38,998 nucleotides of DNA from a phage, in the NCBI GenBank assembly GCA_023343535.1, contig GCA_023343535.1_3944.1. One strand, written 5' to 3'. The notes beneath the pieces were generated by a model that worked only from the letters and a program-made list of their open reading frames with translations, did no database searches and had not been told where the DNA came from. Both the position numbers and the translations under genes were made by a program. Shown here in pieces: positions 3,504 through 32,228 of this stretch (position 1 is its first letter; every line of letters begins with the position of its first letter).

Positions 3504-3718
3504 AGCAACTCCAGAATATCAATACGTTCACCCTTAAGAACACCTGTACGGTCTCTTGCAATCTTACCATCAACGATAAGGATATGCGCGACCTTTAAAG
3601 AGTCACCATTAAAACCTTTTACGAACTTGCTAGGCATCACTACAATGGACATCTCCTGAATCAACTCTGGAGTATAGCAATTGTCGTGAAGTTGCTGAAT
3701 AACGTCTGCAAGTGTCAT
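3500..3718 (-). CDS. hypothetical protein
   Basis: ORF-track start 3733 is TTG; ATG at 3718 forms an ATGA overlap with the upstream stop. Confidence 0.45.
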   Translation of the reverse strand: MTLADVIQQLHDNCYTPELIQEMSIVVMPSKFVKGFNGDSLKVAHILIVDGKIARDRTGVLKGERIDILELL

Positions 3719-3924
3719 TTTTGATGTCTCCAATACTCAATATCAATAAGTTCTTGTGCAATACTTTTCAGATTACCTTTCAAGAAAACCTTCTCAGAAC
3801 CTGAAAGAGATGAATTGTCAATTAACCTGTTCATTCTCTCAAACAACTTCTGCTTACGGTTCTTGATAGTTTCCTTTGAAGCACCTTTCATCATCGCTGC
3901 ATGGGTTCTTCCACGGTGGCTCAT
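3715..3924 (-). CDS. hypothetical basic protein
   Basis: ORF-track start 3972 is GTG; ATG at 3924 is preceded by GGAGGG at 4-nt spacing. Confidence 0.45.
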   Translation of the reverse strand: MSHRGRTHAAMMKGASKETIKNRKQKLFERMNRLIDNSSLSGSEKVFLKGNLKSIAQELIDIEYWRHQK

Positions 3925-22797: not shown

Positions 22798-23283
22798 ATG
22801 AATTACATGGAGATTAGACCATTCGATACAGCTAATGGTGAAGGGGTTCGTGTAAGCCTCTTCGTAGCTGGCTGTAAACATCACTGTGAAGGCTGTTTTA
22901 ACAGGGAGTCTTGGAAGTTTAATGCTGGTAAAGTGTTCACTTATGCAAACCTATACGGAATCATCCAGTTAATGGGTGACGATGCTGTCAGTGGGCTGTC
23001 AATACTTGGTGGAGAACCTCTGGATGATAGAAATATTCAAGAGGTTACCGACATATGCAAACGTGTTAAAACTGTTTACCCAGAGAAGACTATATGGCTC
23101 TGGACGGGTTTTCAGTTACACGAAAAAATTCACCTCGATGTGATGAAATATGTTGACGTGGTGATTGATGGTAAGTATGATTCATCTAAACCAACAGTTA
23201 AACCGTATCGTGGTTCTGATAACCAAAACCTCTGGAGAAAAGAGTATGGGTGGCAAGGTGATTGTCAGTGGAGAGCCGAGTAA
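22798..23283 (+). CDS. nrdG: anaerobic RNR activating enzyme (radical SAM)
   Basis: CKHHCEGCFN (CxxxCxxC) cluster near the N-terminus; 161 aa; paired with nrdD. Confidence 0.8.
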   Translation: MNYMEIRPFDTANGEGVRVSLFVAGCKHHCEGCFNRESWKFNAGKVFTYANLYGIIQLMGDDAVSGLSILGGEPLDDRNIQEVTDICKRVKTVYPEKTIWLWTGFQLHEKIHLDVMKYVDVVIDGKYDSSKPTVKPYRGSDNQNLWRKEYGWQGDCQWRAE

Positions 23284-23324
23284 GTCTCGTCGTAAAGTAG
23301 GTTATCGGTAAAGGACACTTTACA

Positions 23325-23666
23325 ATGTTCTACAGAACAAACTTAACCGTTTGTGTCACTGAAAAAGAACTTAAAACATTTTGTGAAAAGATTGAGAGAG
23401 ATAGTGAAATGGGAATCTGGAATAGTTTTAAATCAAAAGTAAAAGCAGCATTGGCATCATTAGGTATGCTCACTGGTGTTGATGTGACCCATCTTATGCA
23501 AAACTTCAAGATGGATGAAAAGTTGGCTAATGAGATTATGAAAAGCATCTATGTAGGCCGTGGAAAAGGTGGTAAAAAACAAGCACATCGACCAACTGGT
23601 GCAGCAGCAATTAAACGTGCAGCTAAGAAAGCTCGTAACCGTAAACGTAACAAGAAGGTTAAATAA
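23325..23666 (+). CDS. hypothetical protein with highly basic C-terminal tail
   Basis: C-terminus AAIKRAAKKARNRKRNKKVK. Confidence 0.45.
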   Translation: MFYRTNLTVCVTEKELKTFCEKIERDSEMGIWNSFKSKVKAALASLGMLTGVDVTHLMQNFKMDEKLANEIMKSIYVGRGKGGKKQAHRPTGAAAIKRAAKKARNRKRNKKVK

Positions 23667-23668
23667 TC

Positions 23669-23989
23669 ATGAACAAAGTTTATAACACTCGTAAATTACA
23701 GATTTTCGTACTGTGCCAATTTATGGCTAAAGAGTATAACTACTACTACTGTGGTACAGGGTTCATTAGTGATGATGACGGCTCATATCTACCATTCAAA
23801 GAGGCTGTAAAACTCTTCAATGAAGAGGAAAGCTCTAAGAAAGATATTGAAAAGGTTAAGCTAACCTACAGCAAGAAAGATAAGAAGATTATCTGCCTAG
23901 ATAACTTTGTAAAAGTTACTGGAGAAGCAAAAGAGTTTATGGATGAGAGTGAAATCTCGTTCACAAGCATCTTGAAAGTAGCTCAGTAA
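23669..23989 (+). CDS. hypothetical protein
   Basis: 106-aa ORF followed by terminator 24003-24026. Confidence 0.45.
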   Translation: MNKVYNTRKLQIFVLCQFMAKEYNYYYCGTGFISDDDGSYLPFKEAVKLFNEEESSKKDIEKVKLTYSKKDKKIICLDNFVKVTGEAKEFMDESEISFTSILKVAQ

Positions 23990-24002
23990 ACAAATACTAT
24001 AA

Positions 24003-24026
24003 GGGAACTGTAAAGGTTCCCTTTTT
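24003..24026 (+). terminator. intrinsic terminator
   Basis: GGGAAC / GTTCCC stem, 7-nt loop, TTTTT. Confidence 0.55.
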
Positions 24027-24040
24027 ATTTTGGAGATAAT

Positions 24041-24556
24041 ATGTACCTGTCAAACCTGAAACGTTCTGCTGCAATGTCAGTGTTAAGACTCAGTTTTGAG
24101 GAACGTCAAGAGTTCATTGACTCCCACCAATACGACCCTTCTAACTCCAATCACATGATTCTCTGGAATCGTGACAGTACTCGTGAAAGAGCACTTGTCC
24201 GTTATTACCCACACTACACAATAGATAACCTATATGAATGGTGTGTTGTGAAGAACACTATTGCAACACTGAACAATCTTTGCAGGTATACAGGTAAGCA
24301 AACATTTACATTAGGCCACCACAAACCTGTTACAAAGGGTGGTGAGCATCACTGTGCAAACTGGTTTATCCAGACTAAACTTGATAACCAGAAGCAAGGA
24401 GATAACCTTCTAAGCACTCCTAAGATGACCTATGAAGAGCAAGAGAAATATATCAAAAATAATATGCCAGATGTGCTTGACAACAACTATACAGATTTGG
24501 CAATATCTCTCCTGTTGAAGTTCGAGACAGTTTATAGGGCGACTTACAATGGCTAA
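24041..24556 (+). CDS. HNH endonuclease-like protein
   Basis: GHHKPVTKGGEHHCANW ... N fits the HH-x-P-x3-GG-...-N HNH pattern. Confidence 0.4.
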   Translation: MYLSNLKRSAAMSVLRLSFEERQEFIDSHQYDPSNSNHMILWNRDSTRERALVRYYPHYTIDNLYEWCVVKNTIATLNNLCRYTGKQTFTLGHHKPVTKGGEHHCANWFIQTKLDNQKQGDNLLSTPKMTYEEQEKYIKNNMPDVLDNNYTDLAISLLLKFETVYRATYNG

Positions 24557-24827
24557 AGAGAAGTGGGAGATTTTACCATTAGTCAGTGAAGGTGGTAATG
24601 GTTGTGAAATGTACATGATACGTGGTCATGTTCCAGAACCAATTGCACTTGAGATGGTAAACAACTTTACAGATGGCTCTTACAAAGACTTAGGGGAGCC
24701 AACTATAAAGCAGCAATGGGTAAAGCCTGTACCAGACAGCACAGGTAACTGTAGTGTACTTTATCACGTTGTAGACCCTGTAAAATGCAAATCTGCAATG
24801 GCAGTAACAAACGTAACTTTTGATTGA
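24549..24827 (+). CDS. hypothetical protein
   Basis: 92-aa ORF overlapping the upstream stop. Confidence 0.4.
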   Translation: MAKEKWEILPLVSEGGNGCEMYMIRGHVPEPIALEMVNNFTDGSYKDLGEPTIKQQWVKPVPDSTGNCSVLYHVVDPVKCKSAMAVTNVTFD

Positions 24828-24836
24828 GAGAAAATT

Positions 24837-25292
24837 ATGATTTTTTGCAGCTTCCAAAAAAGAATTATTGAGATTCTATACAATAAGTTTGGGACAGATA
24901 ACACATTTGACTCAAATGAAGCTATTGAAGCCCTACAAGAAGGAAGTGATTACATCAAAAAACAGCCAATAGCAAACATCAGGTACTACTTGACTCAGAT
25001 GAGAAAGTGGGGTGTGCTCATCGTGGTAGGACAGATTAAGCAACAAGGGAGGATGCTCATCAACCAATTAAATAGAGGTTTTATTGAGAAGCACATTCAG
25101 CTAGACTATTTACTTAAAGAGCCACGAAACCAACGTGAAGAGCAGCAAAAAGACTTAAGTGGTGGTGTAGGTGTGTCTCCAGACATAAAATTCTTTATTG
25201 GTGAGTTGATGTTTGATACACTCCAAGATGCTGTTGAACACTGCAAAAAGTATATTATCAAAGTAAAACGTGCAAAAATTATTTGGGAGTAA
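24837..25292 (+). CDS. tandem paralog family member A1 (unknown function; winged-helix-like N-terminus inferred)
   Basis: Shares N-terminal (MIFCxxQKxxIEILYxxFGTxNTFDSNEAIxAL), central (GRxxINQLNRxFxEKHIQL) and C-terminal (EHCKxxxIKVKxAKxIWE) blocks with 25714-26178. Confidence 0.6.
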   Translation: MIFCSFQKRIIEILYNKFGTDNTFDSNEAIEALQEGSDYIKKQPIANIRYYLTQMRKWGVLIVVGQIKQQGRMLINQLNRGFIEKHIQLDYLLKEPRNQREEQQKDLSGGVGVSPDIKFFIGELMFDTLQDAVEHCKKYIIKVKRAKIIWE

Positions 25293-25296
25293 TAAC

Positions 25297-25692
25297 ATGT
25301 TTGAGCTTCTGAAGGTTCTGTATATAAATTTTGGCTATGATAAAACATTTTCTGGCTCACAACTAACTAAGGTTTTTAATAAATATCTACCACATGCTTC
25401 AATCAGGGATAAAGCTAATTGGTCTCACAGATTACGTAAAAGTGGGTACATTAGTGTTGTTGGAGCGACAGGATTTAATAATGAGTATCTTATGAGAATC
25501 AATGAAAGCAAAGCTAAAAATGTGCTTTTAAATTGTAATGACTATCAACAAAAGGATGAAGAGGTCAGTGTAGGTGAAGTAGGGTACTTCATAGGTGACA
25601 TACACTTTACCAGTATGGAGGCAGCAGTTGAGCATTGTAAGAGGACGGTTATCCAAACAAAAAGAAAGCGTATTGTTTGGGAAGAAGTTTAA
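25297..25692 (+). CDS. tandem paralog family member B1 (unknown function)
   Basis: ATG at 25297, 4 nt after A1 stop. Shares ELLKVLYxxFGYDKTF and AxEHCKxxxIQxKRxxxVWE with 26183-26563 and the C-terminal block with the A members. Confidence 0.55.
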   Translation: MFELLKVLYINFGYDKTFSGSQLTKVFNKYLPHASIRDKANWSHRLRKSGYISVVGATGFNNEYLMRINESKAKNVLLNCNDYQQKDEEVSVGEVGYFIGDIHFTSMEAAVEHCKRTVIQTKRKRIVWEEV

Positions 25693-25713
25693 ACATTTGA
25701 TTAGGAATACACT

Positions 25714-26178
25714 ATGATTTTTTGCAATTTACAGAAGCACGTAATAGAGATTTTATACAAAACCTTCGGGACAGAAAACACTTTTGACTCTAACGAAGCA
25801 ATTGACGCATTAAGAGAGAATAGCCTTTTTATACGAGGCCAGTCAATCAGTAATACCCGTGGGTATCTAACAATGTTAAGACAGTCTGGTGTACTACTGA
25901 CTGTAGGGCAGGTAAAAAGCAAAGGTAGACTAAGTATTAATCAATTAAATCGGGCCTTTATGGAGAAGCACATACAACTGTCAAGGATGCTAGATAACAC
26001 GCGTGAAGAGTTGGGGAGTTCACAAAAATCAAACTTATCTGAGGTTAAAGATGTTGATGTACAACCTGACGTAAGATACTTTATCGCGGATGTTATGTTT
26101 AAAACACTAGATGAAGCTATTGAGCACTGCAAAGAGCATCTTATTAAAGTTAAACATGCAAAAGTTATTTGGGAGTGA
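25714..26178 (+). CDS. tandem paralog family member A2
   Basis: Roughly half of residues identical to A1 by eye; same conserved blocks. Confidence 0.6.
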   Translation: MIFCNLQKHVIEILYKTFGTENTFDSNEAIDALRENSLFIRGQSISNTRGYLTMLRQSGVLLTVGQVKSKGRLSINQLNRAFMEKHIQLSRMLDNTREELGSSQKSNLSEVKDVDVQPDVRYFIADVMFKTLDEAIEHCKEHLIKVKHAKVIWE

Positions 26179-26182
26179 TGTT

Positions 26183-26563
26183 ATGATTGAACTGTTAAAA
26201 GTCCTGTATAATGAGTTTGGCTATGATAAAACATTTACTTGCTCACAGATACGTAGTATCCATGACAAGGAATTTCCAGATGTATCCAAGACAAACAAGT
26301 CAACTCGGTTCAATCGTCTTCGCCAGAGGGGTTACATTAAAATAGTTGGATACAAGAAGAACTCTTTCGAGTATGTAATGCAGATTAACAGAGAAGTATC
26401 AAGTAAAATACTTGAAGAGCCAACAGCCGAAGAACAAAAGATACAAGATGGTGAAGTTCGCTTCTTTGTGGAGAAGGAAAGTTTTGGGTCAATAGATGAA
26501 GCTATCGAATATTGTAAAAAGAACATTATCCAGATAAAGCGTAGAAAGGTTATTTGGGAATAA
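26183..26563 (+). CDS. tandem paralog family member B2
   Basis: ATG at 26183, 4 nt after A2 stop; homologous to B1 with conserved C-terminal EYCKKNIIQIKRRKVIWE. Confidence 0.55.
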   Translation: MIELLKVLYNEFGYDKTFTCSQIRSIHDKEFPDVSKTNKSTRFNRLRQRGYIKIVGYKKNSFEYVMQINREVSSKILEEPTAEEQKIQDGEVRFFVEKESFGSIDEAIEYCKKNIIQIKRRKVIWE

Positions 26564-26577
26564 AGAGAGAGAAAACT

Positions 26578-27459
26578 ATGAAAACATCTATTCGTGTTAT
26601 AATTCATTCACCGACAAAAGGGTCTCATGAAGAAGAGTTTAACATCATCCAGTTCCCTTCTGGTGAGATTGGTGGACACTTTTCACAAGAGCTTGTTGAT
26701 TTTACTGCTTATGCAGCATCATCCATCAACAACGTGATTATGATTGTAAAGGGTTATGACAAAGACACATTATTTGCTGTGGCACTTGCTAAAGAAGCAA
26801 TTGACGATTTAGTACCCCATAAGTTTGCTATGAAGACTGCTATCTTTTACTATTTGCCAAATGCACGTTACGACCGTCACATGTTTAAAGGTGATGCAGC
26901 AGCTTTGAAAGTGTTTGCACAACAGGTTAATGCAATGGGTTTTGATGCAGTCTGTGCAGTTGACCCTCACAGCTATGTACCAGATAACCTGTTTAACTGC
27001 TTCCAGAGTATTCCTCAAAAGGAAATTGCAGTTCACTATGCAAATGACCCTCTAATTGATTACTTAGTAGCCCCAGATGCAGGTGCTGCTAAGAAGATTG
27101 CAGAGACTGCTAAAGAGGTGGATAAACCATACATCACAATGTCTAAAGTACGTAACCTCAAGACTGGTGAAATTACTGGTATGCGAATCCTTGATGATGT
27201 TGATTTGACAGATAAAACCGTCATGATTCTGGATGATATTTGTGATGGAGGACAAACCTTCATAGAAGCAGCTAAACATCTTCGTGAAGCAGGTGCAAAA
27301 CGTGTGGAACTCTATGTAACGCATGGTATCTTCTCTAAAGATGTTGAAAACCTTCTTGACAATGGTATCGACCATATTTACACTACAAACTCTTTAGGCG
27401 AAGCTAAAGACCGTGGCTTAACACATTATAGTCAAGTTACTGTAGCAAACCTTGATTGA
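26578..27459 (+). CDS. ribose-phosphate pyrophosphokinase (Prs)-like protein; candidate ADPR-pyrophosphate synthetase (Adps) of an NARP1-type module
   Basis: C-terminal block VMILDDICDGGQTFIEAAKHLREAGAKRVELYVTHGIFS closely parallels the canonical Prs PRPP-binding region (VLVDDMIDTGGT ... GAKRV ... THPIFS). ORF-track start 26554 is TTG; ATG at 26578 follows GAGAGAG. Confidence 0.75.
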   Translation: MKTSIRVIIHSPTKGSHEEEFNIIQFPSGEIGGHFSQELVDFTAYAASSINNVIMIVKGYDKDTLFAVALAKEAIDDLVPHKFAMKTAIFYYLPNARYDRHMFKGDAAALKVFAQQVNAMGFDAVCAVDPHSYVPDNLFNCFQSIPQKEIAVHYANDPLIDYLVAPDAGAAKKIAETAKEVDKPYITMSKVRNLKTGEITGMRILDDVDLTDKTVMILDDICDGGQTFIEAAKHLREAGAKRVELYVTHGIFSKDVENLLDNGIDHIYTTNSLGEAKDRGLTHYSQVTVANLD

Positions 27460-27468
27460 AAGTTTATA

Positions 27469-27489
27469 GGGGCTTAAAAGCCCCATTTT
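27469..27489 (+). terminator. short hairpin + U-run between the Prs-like and NAMPT-like genes (attenuator or weak terminator)
   Basis: GGGGCT-TAAA-AGCCCC then ATTTT. Confidence 0.35.
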
Positions 27490-27504
27490 GAGAGAGATTA
27501 AAAG

Positions 27505-29286
27505 ATGACTAAATCACTTTATGCAGTACCAGCAGGTTTAAACGCAGATGCTTACAAATCTGGTCATGTTTACCAGTATCCTAGTGCAACAGAGTACTTG
27601 ATGTTCAACCTGACACCACGTAGTGACAAATGGTTTAACAGCCCCTTAGCAATTGATGGTGTAGTGGCTTTTGGTATTCAACGTTTCGTTAAAGATTACT
27701 TAATAGACCACTGGAACGCCACTTTCTTTGAACGTGATAAAAAAGAAGCAATTGACGAAATCTTAGAAGTCATGAATGGTGTTCTGGGCAAAGATGCTAT
27801 CGGTCGAGAACATTGGGAAGCACTTCACGACTTAGGTTATCTACCAGTTGAAGTATACGCTGTAGAAGAAGGCACAGTTGTTCCAATGCGTGTTCCAATG
27901 ATTGTCTTCCAGAACACTGTTTCAGGTTTCCATTGGGTAGCAGGTTATCTAGAAGACGCTTTCTCTGCTGAGATTTGGAAGGCTTGCACCATTGCAACTA
28001 TTGCATTGCACTACAAACGTATCTGTAAGAAGTGGGCTGACCTCACTTGCGACAACGACTTGCATTTACCTTATCAGTGCCATGACTTTGCTATGCGTGG
28101 TATGTCCGGCTTTACTGATGACGCATTCAACGCTGTAGGACACTTAACCAGCTTTAAAGGGACTGATAGCTTCCCTGCTGTATACACGGCTAAACGTATC
28201 TATGGGCAGACCTATCCAATCTCTGATATTGGAAGCTCTGTACCAGCCACTGAACACTCTGTAATGTGTGCAAACATTGCTTGGGAAGGTGGTAACGAGT
28301 TGGTTGAAGAAGAAAGACGATTTAAAGGTGAGTTACAAACCTTCCGTCATTTCTTAACAGAAACTTACCCAACTGGTATTGCAAGTATTGTTTCAGACAC
28401 TTATAACTTCTGGAGAACTGTGTCAGAAATCTTACCAGCACTTCGTAAAGAAATTATGGAACGTGACGGTAAACTGGTAATTCGTCCTGACTCTGGAGAC
28501 CCTGTACATATTGTCACAGGTTATAAAGCAATCCACTTAGAGTGTGCTAAAAAGGCTTATTACGAGCACCTAAGCAAGCTGGAAGCCAGTGACACAATGC
28601 TGAATGCTGTTCTGAACATGAAGCTTGAAAACATCAGCTATGGTATTGCTGGATGGCTACTGTCAGAAGGCTACGAAATGGTTGTTGACCGAGAAGACTT
28701 TGAAGTTGCTGATACAGTGATGTTGAAAAATGCTTATATGGTTGGCTCTGCAAACGTTGTAACACGTCCTGTAGCTGAGATTGATGGAGCTATTAAGACA
28801 CTGTACAACATCTTTGGGGGAACTATTAACTCTAAAGGATTTAAGGTACTGGACGAGCATATCGGCCTTATCTATGGTGACTCTATCACACTGGAACGTG
28901 CAAACGAAATCCTGAAGCGTCTGTATGAAATGGGTTTTGCAAGCTCTAACGTGGTGTTTGGCGTAGGTTCTTACACTTACCAGTACATGACTCGTGACAC
29001 CTTTGCATTTGCTGTCAAAGCAACTCTTGCAAGCATTGGTGGTAAAGAGATTATGCTTGCAAAAGACCCTAAAACAGATAGTGGTGTTAAGAAATCTGCC
29101 TTTGGTGGTGTAGCACCTATGTGGGATGGTGATAAGCTGAAAGCTGTAGATGGCTATGGATTCCAGAGTTTTGCAGATGTACTTGACCACCCAGCTTGTG
29201 CTTTACGTTTAGTCTTTAGTGACTCTGAGCAGTTCGGTTACACAACTCTTGGTAATATTCGAAATAATATTGACAAGCAGCTTTAA
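27505..29286 (+). CDS. nicotinamide phosphoribosyltransferase (NAMPT/NadV)-family protein; candidate nicotinamide-ADPR transferase (Namat) of an NARP1-type module
   Basis: NAMPT-family blocks DAYKSGHVYQYP, HDFAMRGMSG ... SFKGTDS ... SSVPATEHS, SDTYNFW, IRPDSGDP; 593 aa. Confidence 0.8.
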   Translation: MTKSLYAVPAGLNADAYKSGHVYQYPSATEYLMFNLTPRSDKWFNSPLAIDGVVAFGIQRFVKDYLIDHWNATFFERDKKEAIDEILEVMNGVLGKDAIGREHWEALHDLGYLPVEVYAVEEGTVVPMRVPMIVFQNTVSGFHWVAGYLEDAFSAEIWKACTIATIALHYKRICKKWADLTCDNDLHLPYQCHDFAMRGMSGFTDDAFNAVGHLTSFKGTDSFPAVYTAKRIYGQTYPISDIGSSVPATEHSVMCANIAWEGGNELVEEERRFKGELQTFRHFLTETYPTGIASIVSDTYNFWRTVSEILPALRKEIMERDGKLVIRPDSGDPVHIVTGYKAIHLECAKKAYYEHLSKLEASDTMLNAVLNMKLENISYGIAGWLLSEGYEMVVDREDFEVADTVMLKNAYMVGSANVVTRPVAEIDGAIKTLYNIFGGTINSKGFKVLDEHIGLIYGDSITLERANEILKRLYEMGFASSNVVFGVGSYTYQYMTRDTFAFAVKATLASIGGKEIMLAKDPKTDSGVKKSAFGGVAPMWDGDKLKAVDGYGFQSFADVLDHPACALRLVFSDSEQFGYTTLGNIRNNIDKQL

Positions 29287-29301
29287 AAGTATATGATAAG
29301 A

Positions 29302-29322
29302 GGCTCCTACGGGAGCCTTTTT
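29302..29322 (+). terminator. intrinsic terminator
   Basis: GGCTCC-TACG-GGAGCC then TTTTT. Confidence 0.6.
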
Positions 29323-29339
29323 AATTTCTGGAGAAGATT

Positions 29340-29675
29340 ATGAAAATCAAAGAAATGAACATTAACGTTGTCCTAGAAGAACGTTGGGAGAATATTAAGA
29401 AACCTGAAGATGGTAAAAAGTTCCTTAACAAAATTTTAGTAGCAGCTAAAGAAGAACTGACTGGCAAGATTGCAGCAGCAATCACAATAAAAGTCTGTGT
29501 AAAAGGTCTTCCACAACATCACCAATTTGCACTTGACGAGTTTAAAGAAAGCTTCTACAATCCAAACAAACAGATGCTTGAAAGTAACTTTGCAGTGTCT
29601 ACAAGTATCGTCCATGACAGAAGCTTTATCCTTTACAAAAATATGAGAGGTGAGTCATGCAAGCATATTGGATAG
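29340..29675 (+). CDS. hypothetical protein
   Basis: 111-aa ORF with GGAGAAG Shine-Dalgarno. Confidence 0.45.
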   Translation: MKIKEMNINVVLEERWENIKKPEDGKKFLNKILVAAKEELTGKIAAAITIKVCVKGLPQHHQFALDEFKESFYNPNKQMLESNFAVSTSIVHDRSFILYKNMRGESCKHIG

Positions 29676-29833
29676 AAATTTTACTGTCACTTGGTAGTGT
29701 AGCAGTATTTGTTTACCTTCTTTGCAAGTACTATGCAGAGTGCAAGAAGTGTGATTACTGCAACGGGGAAGGGTATACAAGAGCAGGTTGTTGCCCTATT
29801 TGTGGTGGTTCTGGTAAAATGTTTAATAAGTAA
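29657..29833 (+). CDS. candidate small membrane-anchored zinc-ribbon protein (58 aa)
   Basis: Translation MQAYWIEILLSLGSVAVFVYLLCKYYAECKKCDYCNGEGYTRAGCCPICGGSGKMFNK: hydrophobic N-terminal segment plus CxxC ... CxxC. Below the ORF-track cutoff. Confidence 0.35.
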   Translation: MQAYWIEILLSLGSVAVFVYLLCKYYAECKKCDYCNGEGYTRAGCCPICGGSGKMFNK

Positions 29834-29861
29834 TTTAACAGTGAACTAAGAGGAAAGTATT

Positions 29862-32228
29862 ATGCGCATGGTAAACGACCACGCAGAAGTGATTAAGAGT
29901 TCAACTTCTTTGGAGACATCTCAAGCACAGATTACAATGACACCTGAAATGTTCAGCCTTTTGAGTTCTGGTGTATACACATTTAAAGAGCGAGCAGTGA
30001 TTCGTGAACTGTCATGTAATGCAGTGGATGCTCAGAAAGAAGCTGGAAAAGAGAACATCCCATTCCATGTGCATTTACCTACTCGATTTGAGCCTTACTT
30101 TGAAGTCCGTGACTTTGGAACTGGTTTAACCCACGACAAAGTAATGAGTTTGTATCTGAACTACGGGGCTTCTACGAAGAATGACTCTAATGATTACATT
30201 GGTGCAATGGGTATCGGCTCAAAATCCCCATTTGCAATTGCTCAGTCATTCACAGTATCTAGTTATGTTGATGGTGTTGTTAATAAGTACTCTGTTTACC
30301 TTGAGAATGGTATCCCTCAAGTAACTAAGCTTACTACTAACCCAACAAATGAACCCAATGGTTTAGCTGTACGTGTAGCAGTTGCTGACCACCGTATTTC
30401 AAAGTTCTTTGAAGAGGCTGGTCACGTATATTCATACTTTGCTGTAAAACCAGAAAGCAATATTGTATATGATGATGTGTTAGCAGATATGAACGTCATT
30501 GCCCGTGAAGAGGGTGTTTATGATGCTATGATTCATAAGCAAAGCTGGCGTTCTAGTGGCAACAGGACAGAGTTTAACGTGGTGATGGGTAATATTGCCT
30601 ATCCAGTTAATATGGAAGCATTACTTGGTGATGATTTCTTCAAAGTCTTGCCAGAATTTTTCCGTAGGAGCGTAGACCTTGTAAACATTTACATGCCTAT
30701 TGGTTCAGTTGCTATTGCAGCTTCTCGTGAAGCATTGCAGATGAATGATACGACAAAAAATGTTATCATTGAGGCTACTAAAAAGATAACTGAAGCAATT
30801 ACAAGGGATGTTATTAAGGGAGTTAATAACCAACCTACACTCATGGATGCTGCACAGGCTTATGCAGAGTTACGTTTGAACTCACGAGAAATGTTTAATG
30901 CTGTGTGTCCAAAGCTAGAGTGGGGAGGTGTTAAGCTTGATTCTCTGGAAGAAGAATTGCTAAACATTCGTCGTGGGATTATCTACGCAGAAGACGGCTC
31001 AGTCATTTATGAACGTGACGGTAAAGGTAATATCAAGGTTGATAGGAACGGGAACAATATCCCTAAAGTGGATTATCTTTATAATCCAGTTGCTTATGTC
31101 AAGTTCAACTCTTTAGAGAGTAAGATTCGTGCAACAGCACTTTCCTACACTCAAGAGGCAAGTATGTTCAATATCTTTGGTGCAATGCGTAAAAGCCAAA
31201 TTGAACAGTTTTTGTTCGTGATTAATGACCGTCGTAATAAAAATGGCACTGAGAAGACTGTAGGCCGCAATCAGATTCTGCGTGGTGCATGTCGAGACTA
31301 CGCTAACGAGTCAAGCCTGTTCCACAGATACAATGGTATTGTGTTTGTATTCTCGACTGAAAAAGAGTTAGATGATTTAATCAACCTACATAAACTTGAT
31401 AAAAGTTTGTTAAAGATTGTGAAGATGTCTGATAAGGAACACCATTATCAGCGTAAAGAGGCTGTGAGGGGTGTTGTAAAACTCTGGAAAGCTGTTCCAT
31501 CAGAAACTAAAGCTTCATACACAGAGGTGTCAGAAGACCTAGATACAATTGAAGAACCCCAGCTTTATATCAAGGCAGTAGGCGACACAGTTGATGGTGA
31601 ATGTTTTTGCTCATCCCCAGAAGATGTAGCTAAAACAATTGCTAATGTTATAGGAAAAACAGTCTATGTTTTCCGAAAAGCAAATTGGAAAAAGATACCA
31701 GAAGACTGGATTGAAGTAGATGAGAAGCTATTGAATGACAGCTTAACTGATGTTCACTGGATTAATCATAACAGGTATATGACACGTATCTATATGAATG
31801 GTGTCCTTGACCTTACAAGTAGTTGGATTATTGCCAGAAACTTTACGTTTAATAACAAGAAGATTTCTCGCGGGTATTGCTATTCACGAGATACAAACAA
31901 AACCATCTTCTTAGAAGGTAATGAGAATGCTGTTGAGGCAATGTTTGGTAAGATTCAGTATGTGGCTGCACCGTTTGCATACACTTACACTATCAGTGTT
32001 CTTCAGGATTTGAAGTCATGCCTTGATAATGATACAAAACTGTACAAAAAGATTAAGAAAGCGGGTGACCGCATGGTTATTAAACTGACAAACTACCTTT
32101 CAAAAAGAAAACAAGAAAACTTCTTGCTTTCCCATTTAGATTGGAATAAAGTGTCACCCATCGAAGTGAGTAAGTTCTTAGGTTTTGATGTGAAGTGTGT
32201 TCCAGAAGGGACTACAATTTACTATTAA
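29862..32228 (+). CDS. rIIA: rIIA-like protein with N-terminal GHKL (Bergerat-fold) ATPase domain
   Basis: GHKL motifs in order: N-box RELSCNAVDA, G1 box RDFGTGLT, G2 box GAMGIGSKS; 788 aa. rIIA naming is by analogy to T4 rIIA and the presence of a downstream partner region. Confidence 0.6.
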   Translation: MRMVNDHAEVIKSSTSLETSQAQITMTPEMFSLLSSGVYTFKERAVIRELSCNAVDAQKEAGKENIPFHVHLPTRFEPYFEVRDFGTGLTHDKVMSLYLNYGASTKNDSNDYIGAMGIGSKSPFAIAQSFTVSSYVDGVVNKYSVYLENGIPQVTKLTTNPTNEPNGLAVRVAVADHRISKFFEEAGHVYSYFAVKPESNIVYDDVLADMNVIAREEGVYDAMIHKQSWRSSGNRTEFNVVMGNIAYPVNMEALLGDDFFKVLPEFFRRSVDLVNIYMPIGSVAIAASREALQMNDTTKNVIIEATKKITEAITRDVIKGVNNQPTLMDAAQAYAELRLNSREMFNAVCPKLEWGGVKLDSLEEELLNIRRGIIYAEDGSVIYERDGKGNIKVDRNGNNIPKVDYLYNPVAYVKFNSLESKIRATALSYTQEASMFNIFGAMRKSQIEQFLFVINDRRNKNGTEKTVGRNQILRGACRDYANESSLFHRYNGIVFVFSTEKELDDLINLHKLDKSLLKIVKMSDKEHHYQRKEAVRGVVKLWKAVPSETKASYTEVSEDLDTIEEPQLYIKAVGDTVDGECFCSSPEDVAKTIANVIGKTVYVFRKANWKKIPEDWIEVDEKLLNDSLTDVHWINHNRYMTRIYMNGVLDLTSSWIIARNFTFNNKKISRGYCYSRDTNKTIFLEGNENAVEAMFGKIQYVAAPFAYTYTISVLQDLKSCLDNDTKLYKKIKKAGDRMVIKLTNYLSKRKQENFLLSHLDWNKVSPIEVSKFLGFDVKCVPEGTTIYY

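Follow-up and report, generated by a model that had tools for sequence, protein, structure and literature searches.

An optional, horizontally exchanged cassette of predicted winged-helix proteins in the NARP1 operon of Felix O1-like phages

The 38,998-nucleotide (nt) stretch of phage DNA analyzed here (GenBank assembly GCA_023343535.1, contig GCA_023343535.1_3944.1; hereafter the window) comes from a Felixounavirus, a Felix O1-like myovirus, and carries four consecutive genes, A1, B1, A2 and B2, directly upstream of adps and namat, the two genes of the NAD+-rebuilding pathway NARP1. The four genes encode proteins of one family, phrog_29478, and form an optional cassette in a gp171-gp92-[array]-adps-namat operon. 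The cassette moves horizontally between phage backbones, also across genus-level lineages. Our composite reading, to which we give a probability of about 0.5, is that the array is a paired nucleic-acid-binding accessory cassette; the parts of this reading that concern protein architecture and the cassette are well supported, whereas the functional part is not. The four genes are the following.

24837..25292, plus strand: A1, long subtype, 151 amino acids; predicted winged helix, linker and C-terminal module
25297..25692, plus strand: B1, short subtype, 131 amino acids
25714..26178, plus strand: A2, long subtype, 154 amino acids
26183..26563, plus strand: B2, short subtype, 126 amino acids; same architecture as A2 in the structural model

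An earlier note, made from the sequence alone, had described these four plus-strand reading frames of 126-154 amino acids as one family in two alternating subtypes. The coordinates, the 4-nt gaps between A and B genes and the 14-nt distance from the B2 stop codon to the ATG of the Prs-like gene adps (26578) were all confirmed; the gap between B1 and A2 is 21 nt. Membership of a single family is established by BLASTP (E = 8e-19 for A1 against B1, E = 2e-15 for A2 against B2) and by the common match of all four proteins to phrog_29478 (E = 5e-63 for A1, 3e-14 for B1, 8.8e-68 for A2 and 1.3e-15 for B2), with matches spanning positions 1-150 or 9-150 of the 150 positions of the profile. The conserved N- and C-terminal blocks quoted in the note are present, with the small deviation that B1 has R in place of the motif K (KRKRIVWE). 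Pairwise identity is 57% for A1/A2, 42% for B1/B2 and 26-33% between A and B proteins, so the estimate that members of a subtype differ at roughly half of their residues was right. The duplication is old, as had been proposed: synonymous sites of the paralogues are saturated, with a synonymous substitution rate (dS) of about 2.6 or uncomputable, and orthologues specific to every paralogue exist in other phages. The array is not an assembly artefact, given that a metagenomic contig and 11 phage records in GenBank, from about nine distinct phages, have the same four genes.

B1 and B2 each have a GGGAG Shine-Dalgarno sequence 7 nt before the ATG; it is supplied by the last two codons, Trp-Glu (TGGGAG), of A1 and A2 respectively, which makes each A-B pair translationally coupled. 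This Shine-Dalgarno sequence also bears on the start of B2. The GenBank records of finno, ESCO49, SP3 and fBSPA4 start the gene at an upstream ATG (26156) that overlaps A2; the start at 26183 is the better choice, since the GGGAG lies 7 nt upstream of it, exactly as for B1. A2 is annotated as a truncated gene in RPN213 (gp100; L012 1973-2278), and this annotation and the B2 starts are probable GenBank errors.

The suggestion in the earlier note that the N-terminal region resembles a winged helix is supported by AlphaFold2 (AF2) models of A2 (m697b5ff8e6c1) and B2 (mf080c0500dd5), which used two orderings of the same 16 sequences. The two models agree on an N-terminal H1-b1-H2-H3-b2-wing-b3 arrangement, a winged helix-turn-helix (wHTH) topology, at a predicted local distance difference test (pLDDT) score of about 90. 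The modelled winged helix extends over residues 1-88 in A2 and 1-77 in B2; in A2 it is followed by a disordered stretch (residues 95-119) and then by a beta-hairpin plus helix (residues 122-146). Structural matches of the models share only 4-20% sequence identity with them, and those of MarR/SarA type 11-12%. The isoelectric points (pI) of the four proteins are 7.8-9.1, and those of their N-domains 9.1-9.8; the N-domain pI is about 6.1 in two other family members, the C-type copy of phage Pr103Blw and a distant member, P0015. B1 and B2 have a basic recognition helix (H3), A1 and A2 a basic wing tip. Both the recognition helix and the wing are essentially invariant within subfamilies and different between them.

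The family signature is a C-terminal module of about 35 residues, consisting of a modelled beta-hairpin and basic amphipathic helix and an invariant C-terminal Trp-Glu. A and B proteins share 43-51% identity over the C-terminal 35 residues, compared with 21-27% over the winged helix. The same comparison with P0015 gives 43-54% for the C-terminal module and 14-20% for the winged helix. By these alignments, the module is the sole part conserved across every subfamily.

The stretch from 24000 to 29300 shares 98.7% identity with Escherichia phage finno. It has matches in 255 phage records, almost all from Ounavirinae of Escherichia, Salmonella, Shigella and Citrobacter; the family is present in 16 of the 255. 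In 50,697 phage records searched with tblastn, the family was found in only 16, with four copies in 11 and two copies in five (Pr103Blw and three Mooglevirus phages: Mordin in two records, Henu11 and KMM2). The survey of copy number among related phages that had been suggested therefore gives 0, 2 or 4 genes at the locus, in at least four layouts: 0, A1-B1, A2'-C and A1-B1-A2-B2. The two-copy arrays in GenBank combine an A2-like gene with the C type (A2'-C), and the layout with A1-B1 only is known from metagenomic contigs, which also contain one further four-copy genome. The family tree resolves into A1, A2, C, B1 and B2 subclades, five in all, and the distant member. All arrays lie at one site, the exception being P0015, a single gene 5.8 kilobases (kb) downstream of namat, beyond rIIA/rIIB, in a contig (L007) from a divergent Ounavirinae-like phage. 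This contig (Logan SRR31815898; 8001-11245) also has WYL_2-like and Macro-domain genes a few genes downstream of P0015.

The site is empty in most relatives (e.g., heid and Si3), where adps starts 11 nt after gp92. In the window, the array is flanked by a 15-nt direct repeat, GAGAGAAAAyTATGA, each copy of which holds a ribosome-binding site (RBS) and a start codon.

24826..24840, plus strand: left flanking direct repeat GAGAGAAAATTATGA, RBS and start codon
26567..26581, plus strand: right flanking direct repeat GAGAGAAAACTATGA, RBS and adps start codon

The flanking repeats of Mordin and Henu11 are longer, at about 35-38 nt, take in the 3' end of gp92, and are a true duplication. The sequence TGAGAGARA occurs seven times in the window, all on the plus strand, against 1.5 expected copies; the positions are 7353, 14090, 18341, 23393, 24825, 27489 and 34737, mostly a few bases 5' of a start codon. 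TGAGAGARA looks like the phage's standard junction of stop codon and RBS, and it may provide microhomology for cassette exchange. A dedicated att-like site was considered and rejected, as the 15-nt repeat is an ordinary stop-plus-RBS motif. The left border differs in fBSPA4 (L014 174-690) and fKMPT1, which have no separate gp92 and retain only its last ~30 nt before A1.

Evidence for horizontal exchange came from a comparison of cassette and flanks in eight four-copy phages (28 pairs), whose places of isolation include Denmark, France, Spain, China and Thailand. The array DNA of these phages is 97.5-100% identical (mean 98.4%), the flank means are 93.2% and 94.3%, and the array has the higher identity in 28 of the 28 pairs. 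In sliding windows, diversity is 4-12% outside the array and 0.4-4.7% within it, with the drop at the array borders and the recovery at the adps start. The array is also low at synonymous sites, with a dS of 0.01-0.13 against mostly 0.18-0.49 in flanking genes (one gp92 comparison gave 0.09), and its uniformity is therefore not due to protein-level constraint. Two further comparisons separate the history of the cassette from that of its surroundings. The flanks of Pr103Blw are 97-99% identical to the window at the protein level, yet this phage carries a different cassette, the A2-like gene of which is synonymously saturated. Between the window and a Mooglevirus-like contig (L017), dS is 0.77-1.17 in the flanks, compared with 0.27 for A1 and 0.40 for B1, and identity rises from 68-80% to 93-96% at the conserved junction of the gp92 end and the A1 start codon. 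The cassette is far younger than the surrounding DNA, with breakpoints at the conserved gp92-end/RBS junction. The uniform array, the sharp breakpoints and the dS contrast in L017 together establish exchange between backbones.

The paralogues had been described as "under diversification", and this was not borne out. The ratio of nonsynonymous to synonymous substitution rates (dN/dS) among orthologues is 0.05-0.24 for the array genes and 0.06-0.21 for the flanking genes; that is, the array orthologues are under ordinary purifying selection, as are the flanks, and neither recognition helix nor wing varies within a subfamily. Variation at the locus arises by gain, loss and swapping of cassettes, not by fast point evolution. 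Since the cassette is younger than its carrier genomes and forms a sharply bounded island of low diversity, something, whether selection or drive, is spreading it.

phrog_29478 had already been catalogued, without an assigned function, and the GenBank label for its members is "hypothetical protein". The earlier note did not recognize the family, in agreement with the outcome of profile searches, where Pfam, NCBIfam, PADLOC and PDB profiles matched no well-characterized family. The Pfam, NCBIfam and PADLOC scans covered the four proteins and two distant members, P0014 and P0015. They gave no hit at E <= 1 and only sub-threshold noise (XopL_C, DapB_N, RBFA, Tap-RNA_bind and CV_2116), with zero matches of these six proteins to PADLOC models of anti-phage defence components. 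The PDB profile searches were likewise limited to noise; a match of the C-terminal module to the betaF-alphaB part of the NCK SH2 domain (16 bits, E = 0.08) was set aside as a short-motif coincidence, as the rest of SH2 is absent. Three other identities were considered and dropped: a DNA-mimic anti-restriction protein, as the proteins are basic; T4-type internal proteins, given the location of the genes in the early/nucleotide-metabolism region and the C-terminal position of the conserved module; and a Fur-like metal-binding dimerization domain, as only one Cys is invariant and several members have Tyr in place of the His.

Larger collections added few relatives. Word-indexed searches of 5.8 billion proteins gave 13 family clusters, and an exhaustive profile search of 1.84 billion representatives gave four genuine clusters at 50% identity: the A type, the B type, a third long type, C (P0014), and the distant 125-amino-acid member (P0015, E = 1.3e-8). 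P0017 and P0018, beta-propeller repeat proteins that also appeared in the profile search, were discarded as compositional matches. P0016, a protein of 1424 amino acids, has at least five tandem winged-helix units resembling the family N-domain (E = 8.4e-6) and offers no functional clue. Peptide patterns run against IMG/VR brought up no relative, the whole window contained no members beyond the four by hmmsearch, and literature searches found no paper on the phrog_29478 family; a fold search of BFVD returned only uncharacterized phage wHTH proteins. In the protein-collection profile searches, members were found only in Ounavirinae-like loci, with NARP1 operons elsewhere not inspected directly, and the family appears to be restricted to Ounavirinae.

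The operon that houses the array is delimited by two terminator-like hairpins, and its remaining features are as follows.

23972..24000: promoter-like site TTGAAA-17-TACTAT, immediately 5' of the first terminator-like hairpin
24001..24023, plus strand: terminator-like hairpin that closes the preceding unit and, with the promoter-like site, marks the upstream operon limit
24041..24556, plus strand: gp171, first gene of the operon (phrog_3500), kept in all relatives; weak HNH-like motif
24549..24827, plus strand: gp92 (phrog_4726), conserved; left border of the insertion site
26578..27459, plus strand: Adps (Prs-like ADP-ribose pyrophosphokinase), first NARP1 enzyme; outside the array family, in the same transcription unit
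27505..29286, plus strand: Namat (Nampt-like), second NARP1 enzyme
29298..29321, plus strand: terminator-like hairpin, operon end

The T-run hairpins at 24001-24023 and 29298-29321 bracket eight genes, gp171-gp92-A1-B1-A2-B2-adps-namat, and no terminator-like site was found between 24023 and 29298, the array included. The statement in the earlier note that the array runs into the Prs-like gene without a terminator holds, and its proposal that the array is co-transcribed with the NAD+ genes is plausible for a single terminator-bounded unit in which array, adps and namat have the same orientation. Terminators at the two equivalent places also figure in the depositors' annotation of phage Mordin. 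An Rfam scan of 23000-30000 gave no match. The HNH-like motif of gp171 is GHHKPVTKGGEHHCANW...N, and the protein has a weak match to the HNH endonuclease family phrog_2214 (E = 3.8e-6). An additional gene, situated between adps and namat or at another place in the region, is present in several relatives, namely Si3 (L003 3230-3721), VSe11, PMBT20 and ESCO50. The product is annotated as an HNH endonuclease in VSe11, PMBT20 and ESCO50, and in Si3 as an HNH endonuclease in RefSeq and as hypothetical in GenBank. These insertions indicate that the NARP1 operon is a hot spot for mobile genes.

The term "NAD+ cassette" that had been applied to the downstream genes was correct: the PRPS-like and Nampt-like pair corresponds to NARP1 (Adps and Namat) of the related phage Bas63. 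NARP1 is encoded by genes 79-80 of Bas63, and Adps and Namat rebuild NAD+ from ADP-ribose (ADPR) and nicotinamide and so overcome SIR2-HerA (bioRxiv 10.1101/2024.02.11.579819). Macro domains are the ADPR-1P (ADP-ribose-1P) phosphatases of extended NARP1 pathways; one such protein, the Macro-domain phosphatase Adpp, is a proven optional extension found in 15% of NARP1-carrying phages (bioRxiv 10.64898/2026.01.28.702374). The link between the array and NARP1 is loose. Most NARP1 operons of these phages lack the array, and Bas63 is not among the carriers. Moreover, a Logan contig (SRR14751623; L024) has intact A2'-C genes with adps and namat deleted; at positions 3527-3901 of this contig, the first 24 adps codons are fused in frame to a homologue of the window gene at 29340-29675, and rIIA follows shortly after. 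Consistent co-occurrence with adps-namat was thus not seen, given the many loci without the family and contigs L024 and L007. Pfam scans found no enzyme, ADPR-handling, PRPS-like, Nampt-like or Macro domain in the A and B proteins; only the adps and namat products carry such domains. We infer that the cassette is independent of NARP1 and is not part of NAD+ reconstitution.

In the composite reading, the winged helix would bind nucleic acid, most likely double-stranded DNA, and each subfamily would have its own fixed target. The shared C-terminal module would mediate assembly, most likely into A:B hetero-oligomers, and translational coupling would give A and B in 1:1 amounts. The cassette would then provide a dispensable, conditional early or middle function: host takeover, counter-defence, or competition with co-infecting phages. 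From gene position alone, a counter-defence role is plausible. Several points count against the composite reading. Nucleic-acid binding, oligomerization and phenotype are all predicted. The C-terminal module is modelled at a pLDDT of 50-76, with the last 10 residues below 50, which leaves its fold and role uncertain. No B partner accompanies the A2'-C arrays or the single distant member, and an obligate A:B heterodimer therefore cannot be general. In addition, the 15-nt repeat, being a common stop-plus-RBS motif, may be no dedicated recombination site. A stronger version, in which the coupled A-B winged-helix pairs are a new accessory weapon sweeping Felix O1-like phages, either as a counter-defence/host-takeover module or as a non-nuclease gene-drive-like element, we regard as quite unlikely. 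In that version, the winged helices could each recognize a different target in the host or a rival phage, and the C-terminal module could deliver a common inhibition, upstream of and independent from NAD+ reconstitution.

Other readings start from the setting of the array. In a form of the earlier note's counter-defence idea that ties it to NARP1, the A and B proteins might extend or complement NAD+ reconstitution, for instance by blocking or blinding an NAD+-depleting defence, or by handling an ADPR-derived product as Adpp does. The position of the array within the same terminator-bounded operon as adps and namat is consistent with such a role, as are the status of Bas63 NARP1 as a proven anti-defence pathway, the precedent that Adpp sets for extra anti-defence genes in NARP1 operons, and the accessory, patchy and horizontally spreading nature of the array, as would be expected of arms-race genes. 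We nevertheless consider this link to NARP1 unlikely, as the proteins lack any enzyme or ligand-binding domain and matched no Macro, Nudix, RyR, defence or anti-defence model, and their orthologues evolve without acceleration. Moreover, the family occurs in just 16 of the 255 locus-matching records, Bas63 excluded, the A2'-C array of contig L024 is intact although NARP1 has been deleted, and the distant member lies 5.8 kb beyond namat, past rIIA/rIIB. Alternatively, the cassette could be selfish, spreading by its own transmission via biased inheritance in mixed infections or by hitch-hiking with nearby homing endonucleases. Its sporadic distribution, its precisely intergenic insertion with direct repeats at both ends, its youth relative to the backbone and its sharp breakpoints all fit this model, as does its location at an insertion hot spot for HNH endonucleases in an operon whose first gene, gp171, has an HNH-like motif. 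However, the family has no nuclease motif or domain, and flanking co-conversion is absent, with diversity back to background right at the borders. Purifying selection on all four genes within the recent spread (dN/dS 0-0.24) further suggests that the proteins themselves matter, and selfish spread is distinctly doubtful.

The winged-helix fold and basic surface would also suit regulators that bind operators of their own operon and tune the NAD+ genes, in the manner of Aca or NrtR, and the genes do sit inside the operon to be regulated. Yet these genes are missing from most relatives, which have the same operon behind near-identical upstream DNA, and the array is kept where NARP1 is gone; no operator was identified for the proteins. 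A single autoregulated promoter needs no four diverged paralogues with different recognition helices, and the proteins lack a sensor domain such as Nudix; an operon-specific regulator is thus very unlikely. Finally, the proposal that the four are not real genes, but chance reading frames or an assembly duplication, had nothing in its favour and is refuted by the conservation of the reading frames, at dN/dS values far less than 1, across many independent isolates and metagenomes of several continents, by the significant PHROG match, and by differences between paralogues at roughly half or more of their residues, which no assembly repeat would show.

NARP1 of Felix O1-like phages is among the best understood phage answers to NAD+-depleting immunity, and one new counter-defence enzyme, Adpp, has already come from extra genes in such operons. 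The cassette is an optional occupant of this operon; its proteins are conserved, and it occurs in phages of E. coli and Salmonella from several continents. It offers screens for anti-defence or phage-competition functions a concrete, cheap and well-defined candidate, and shows cleanly, in phages of a therapeutic type (Felixounavirus), how cassettes are exchanged in nature at a conserved RBS junction. Should the proteins be plain DNA-binding accessory regulators, the analysis would still annotate phrog_29478 and correct several GenBank gene starts.

The array proteins have partial counterparts among known systems. They share with known winged-helix regulators a basic surface, small size and a separate C-terminal piece that possibly serves dimerization, as in Fur and MecI. 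However, there is no sequence or hidden Markov model (HMM) similarity to these regulators, and no relative of the C-terminal beta-hairpin/helix module was detected. The resemblance to MarR/SarA is one of fold only, as the family HMM was not matched (Pfam/NCBIfam, E <= 1) and the flanking dimerization helices are absent from the models; the features that define Fur and PadR members were likewise not found in the A and B proteins. F93 of STIV/SSV1 (PDB 2co5, 1tbx) and the phage wHTH proteins of BFVD are also viral proteins of about 90-150 amino acids with a winged-helix core, and are often non-essential accessory proteins. F93 is a single-domain homodimer, whereas the array family adds a linker and a conserved C-terminal module and occurs as coupled A-B pairs in arrays.

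Small helix-turn-helix (HTH) repressors known as Aca (anti-CRISPR-associated) are encoded in phage anti-defence operons, and are normally single genes tightly linked to the acr genes whose promoter they repress. The array proteins are likewise HTH-type (winged-helix) proteins inside an anti-defence operon. Unlike Aca, the array family is missing from the majority of NARP1 operons, comes as 2-4 diverged copies and persists after NARP1 loss. NrtR is an ADPR-sensing regulator of bacterial NAD+ genes with a Nudix-like domain fused to a winged helix; the A and B proteins have no Nudix match and are too small. Adpp (NARP1-AP) is, as the array is, an optional addition that some phages have in the adps-namat operon, but it is an enzyme with a recognizable Macro domain and demonstrated biochemistry, while the A and B proteins have no enzyme or ADPR-binding domain.

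Free-standing homing endonuclease genes share with the array a sporadic, precisely intergenic insertion; no HNH, GIY-YIG, LAGLIDADG, PD-(D/E)XK or EDxHD domain was found in the A and B proteins with Pfam, PHROGs, NCBIfam or PDB profiles. Phage accessory regions, such as those of enterobacteriophages, carry patchy arms-race genes, and cassettes of small DNA-binding proteins are familiar there (bioRxiv 10.1101/2023.04.06.535777). The array resembles such regions in having a fixed hot spot, alternative gene sets, exchange at short conserved regulatory sequences, and a patchy distribution among close relatives. T4-type phages have hyperplastic regions and promoter-stem-loop cassettes. Unlike those cassettes and the accessory regions, all alternatives at the present locus come from one protein family, and the boundary is an ordinary stop-plus-RBS junction with no promoter-stem-loop. 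Further upstream, at the operon limit, the promoter-like site and hairpin at 23972-24023 recall the promoter-stem-loop units of T4-type phages.

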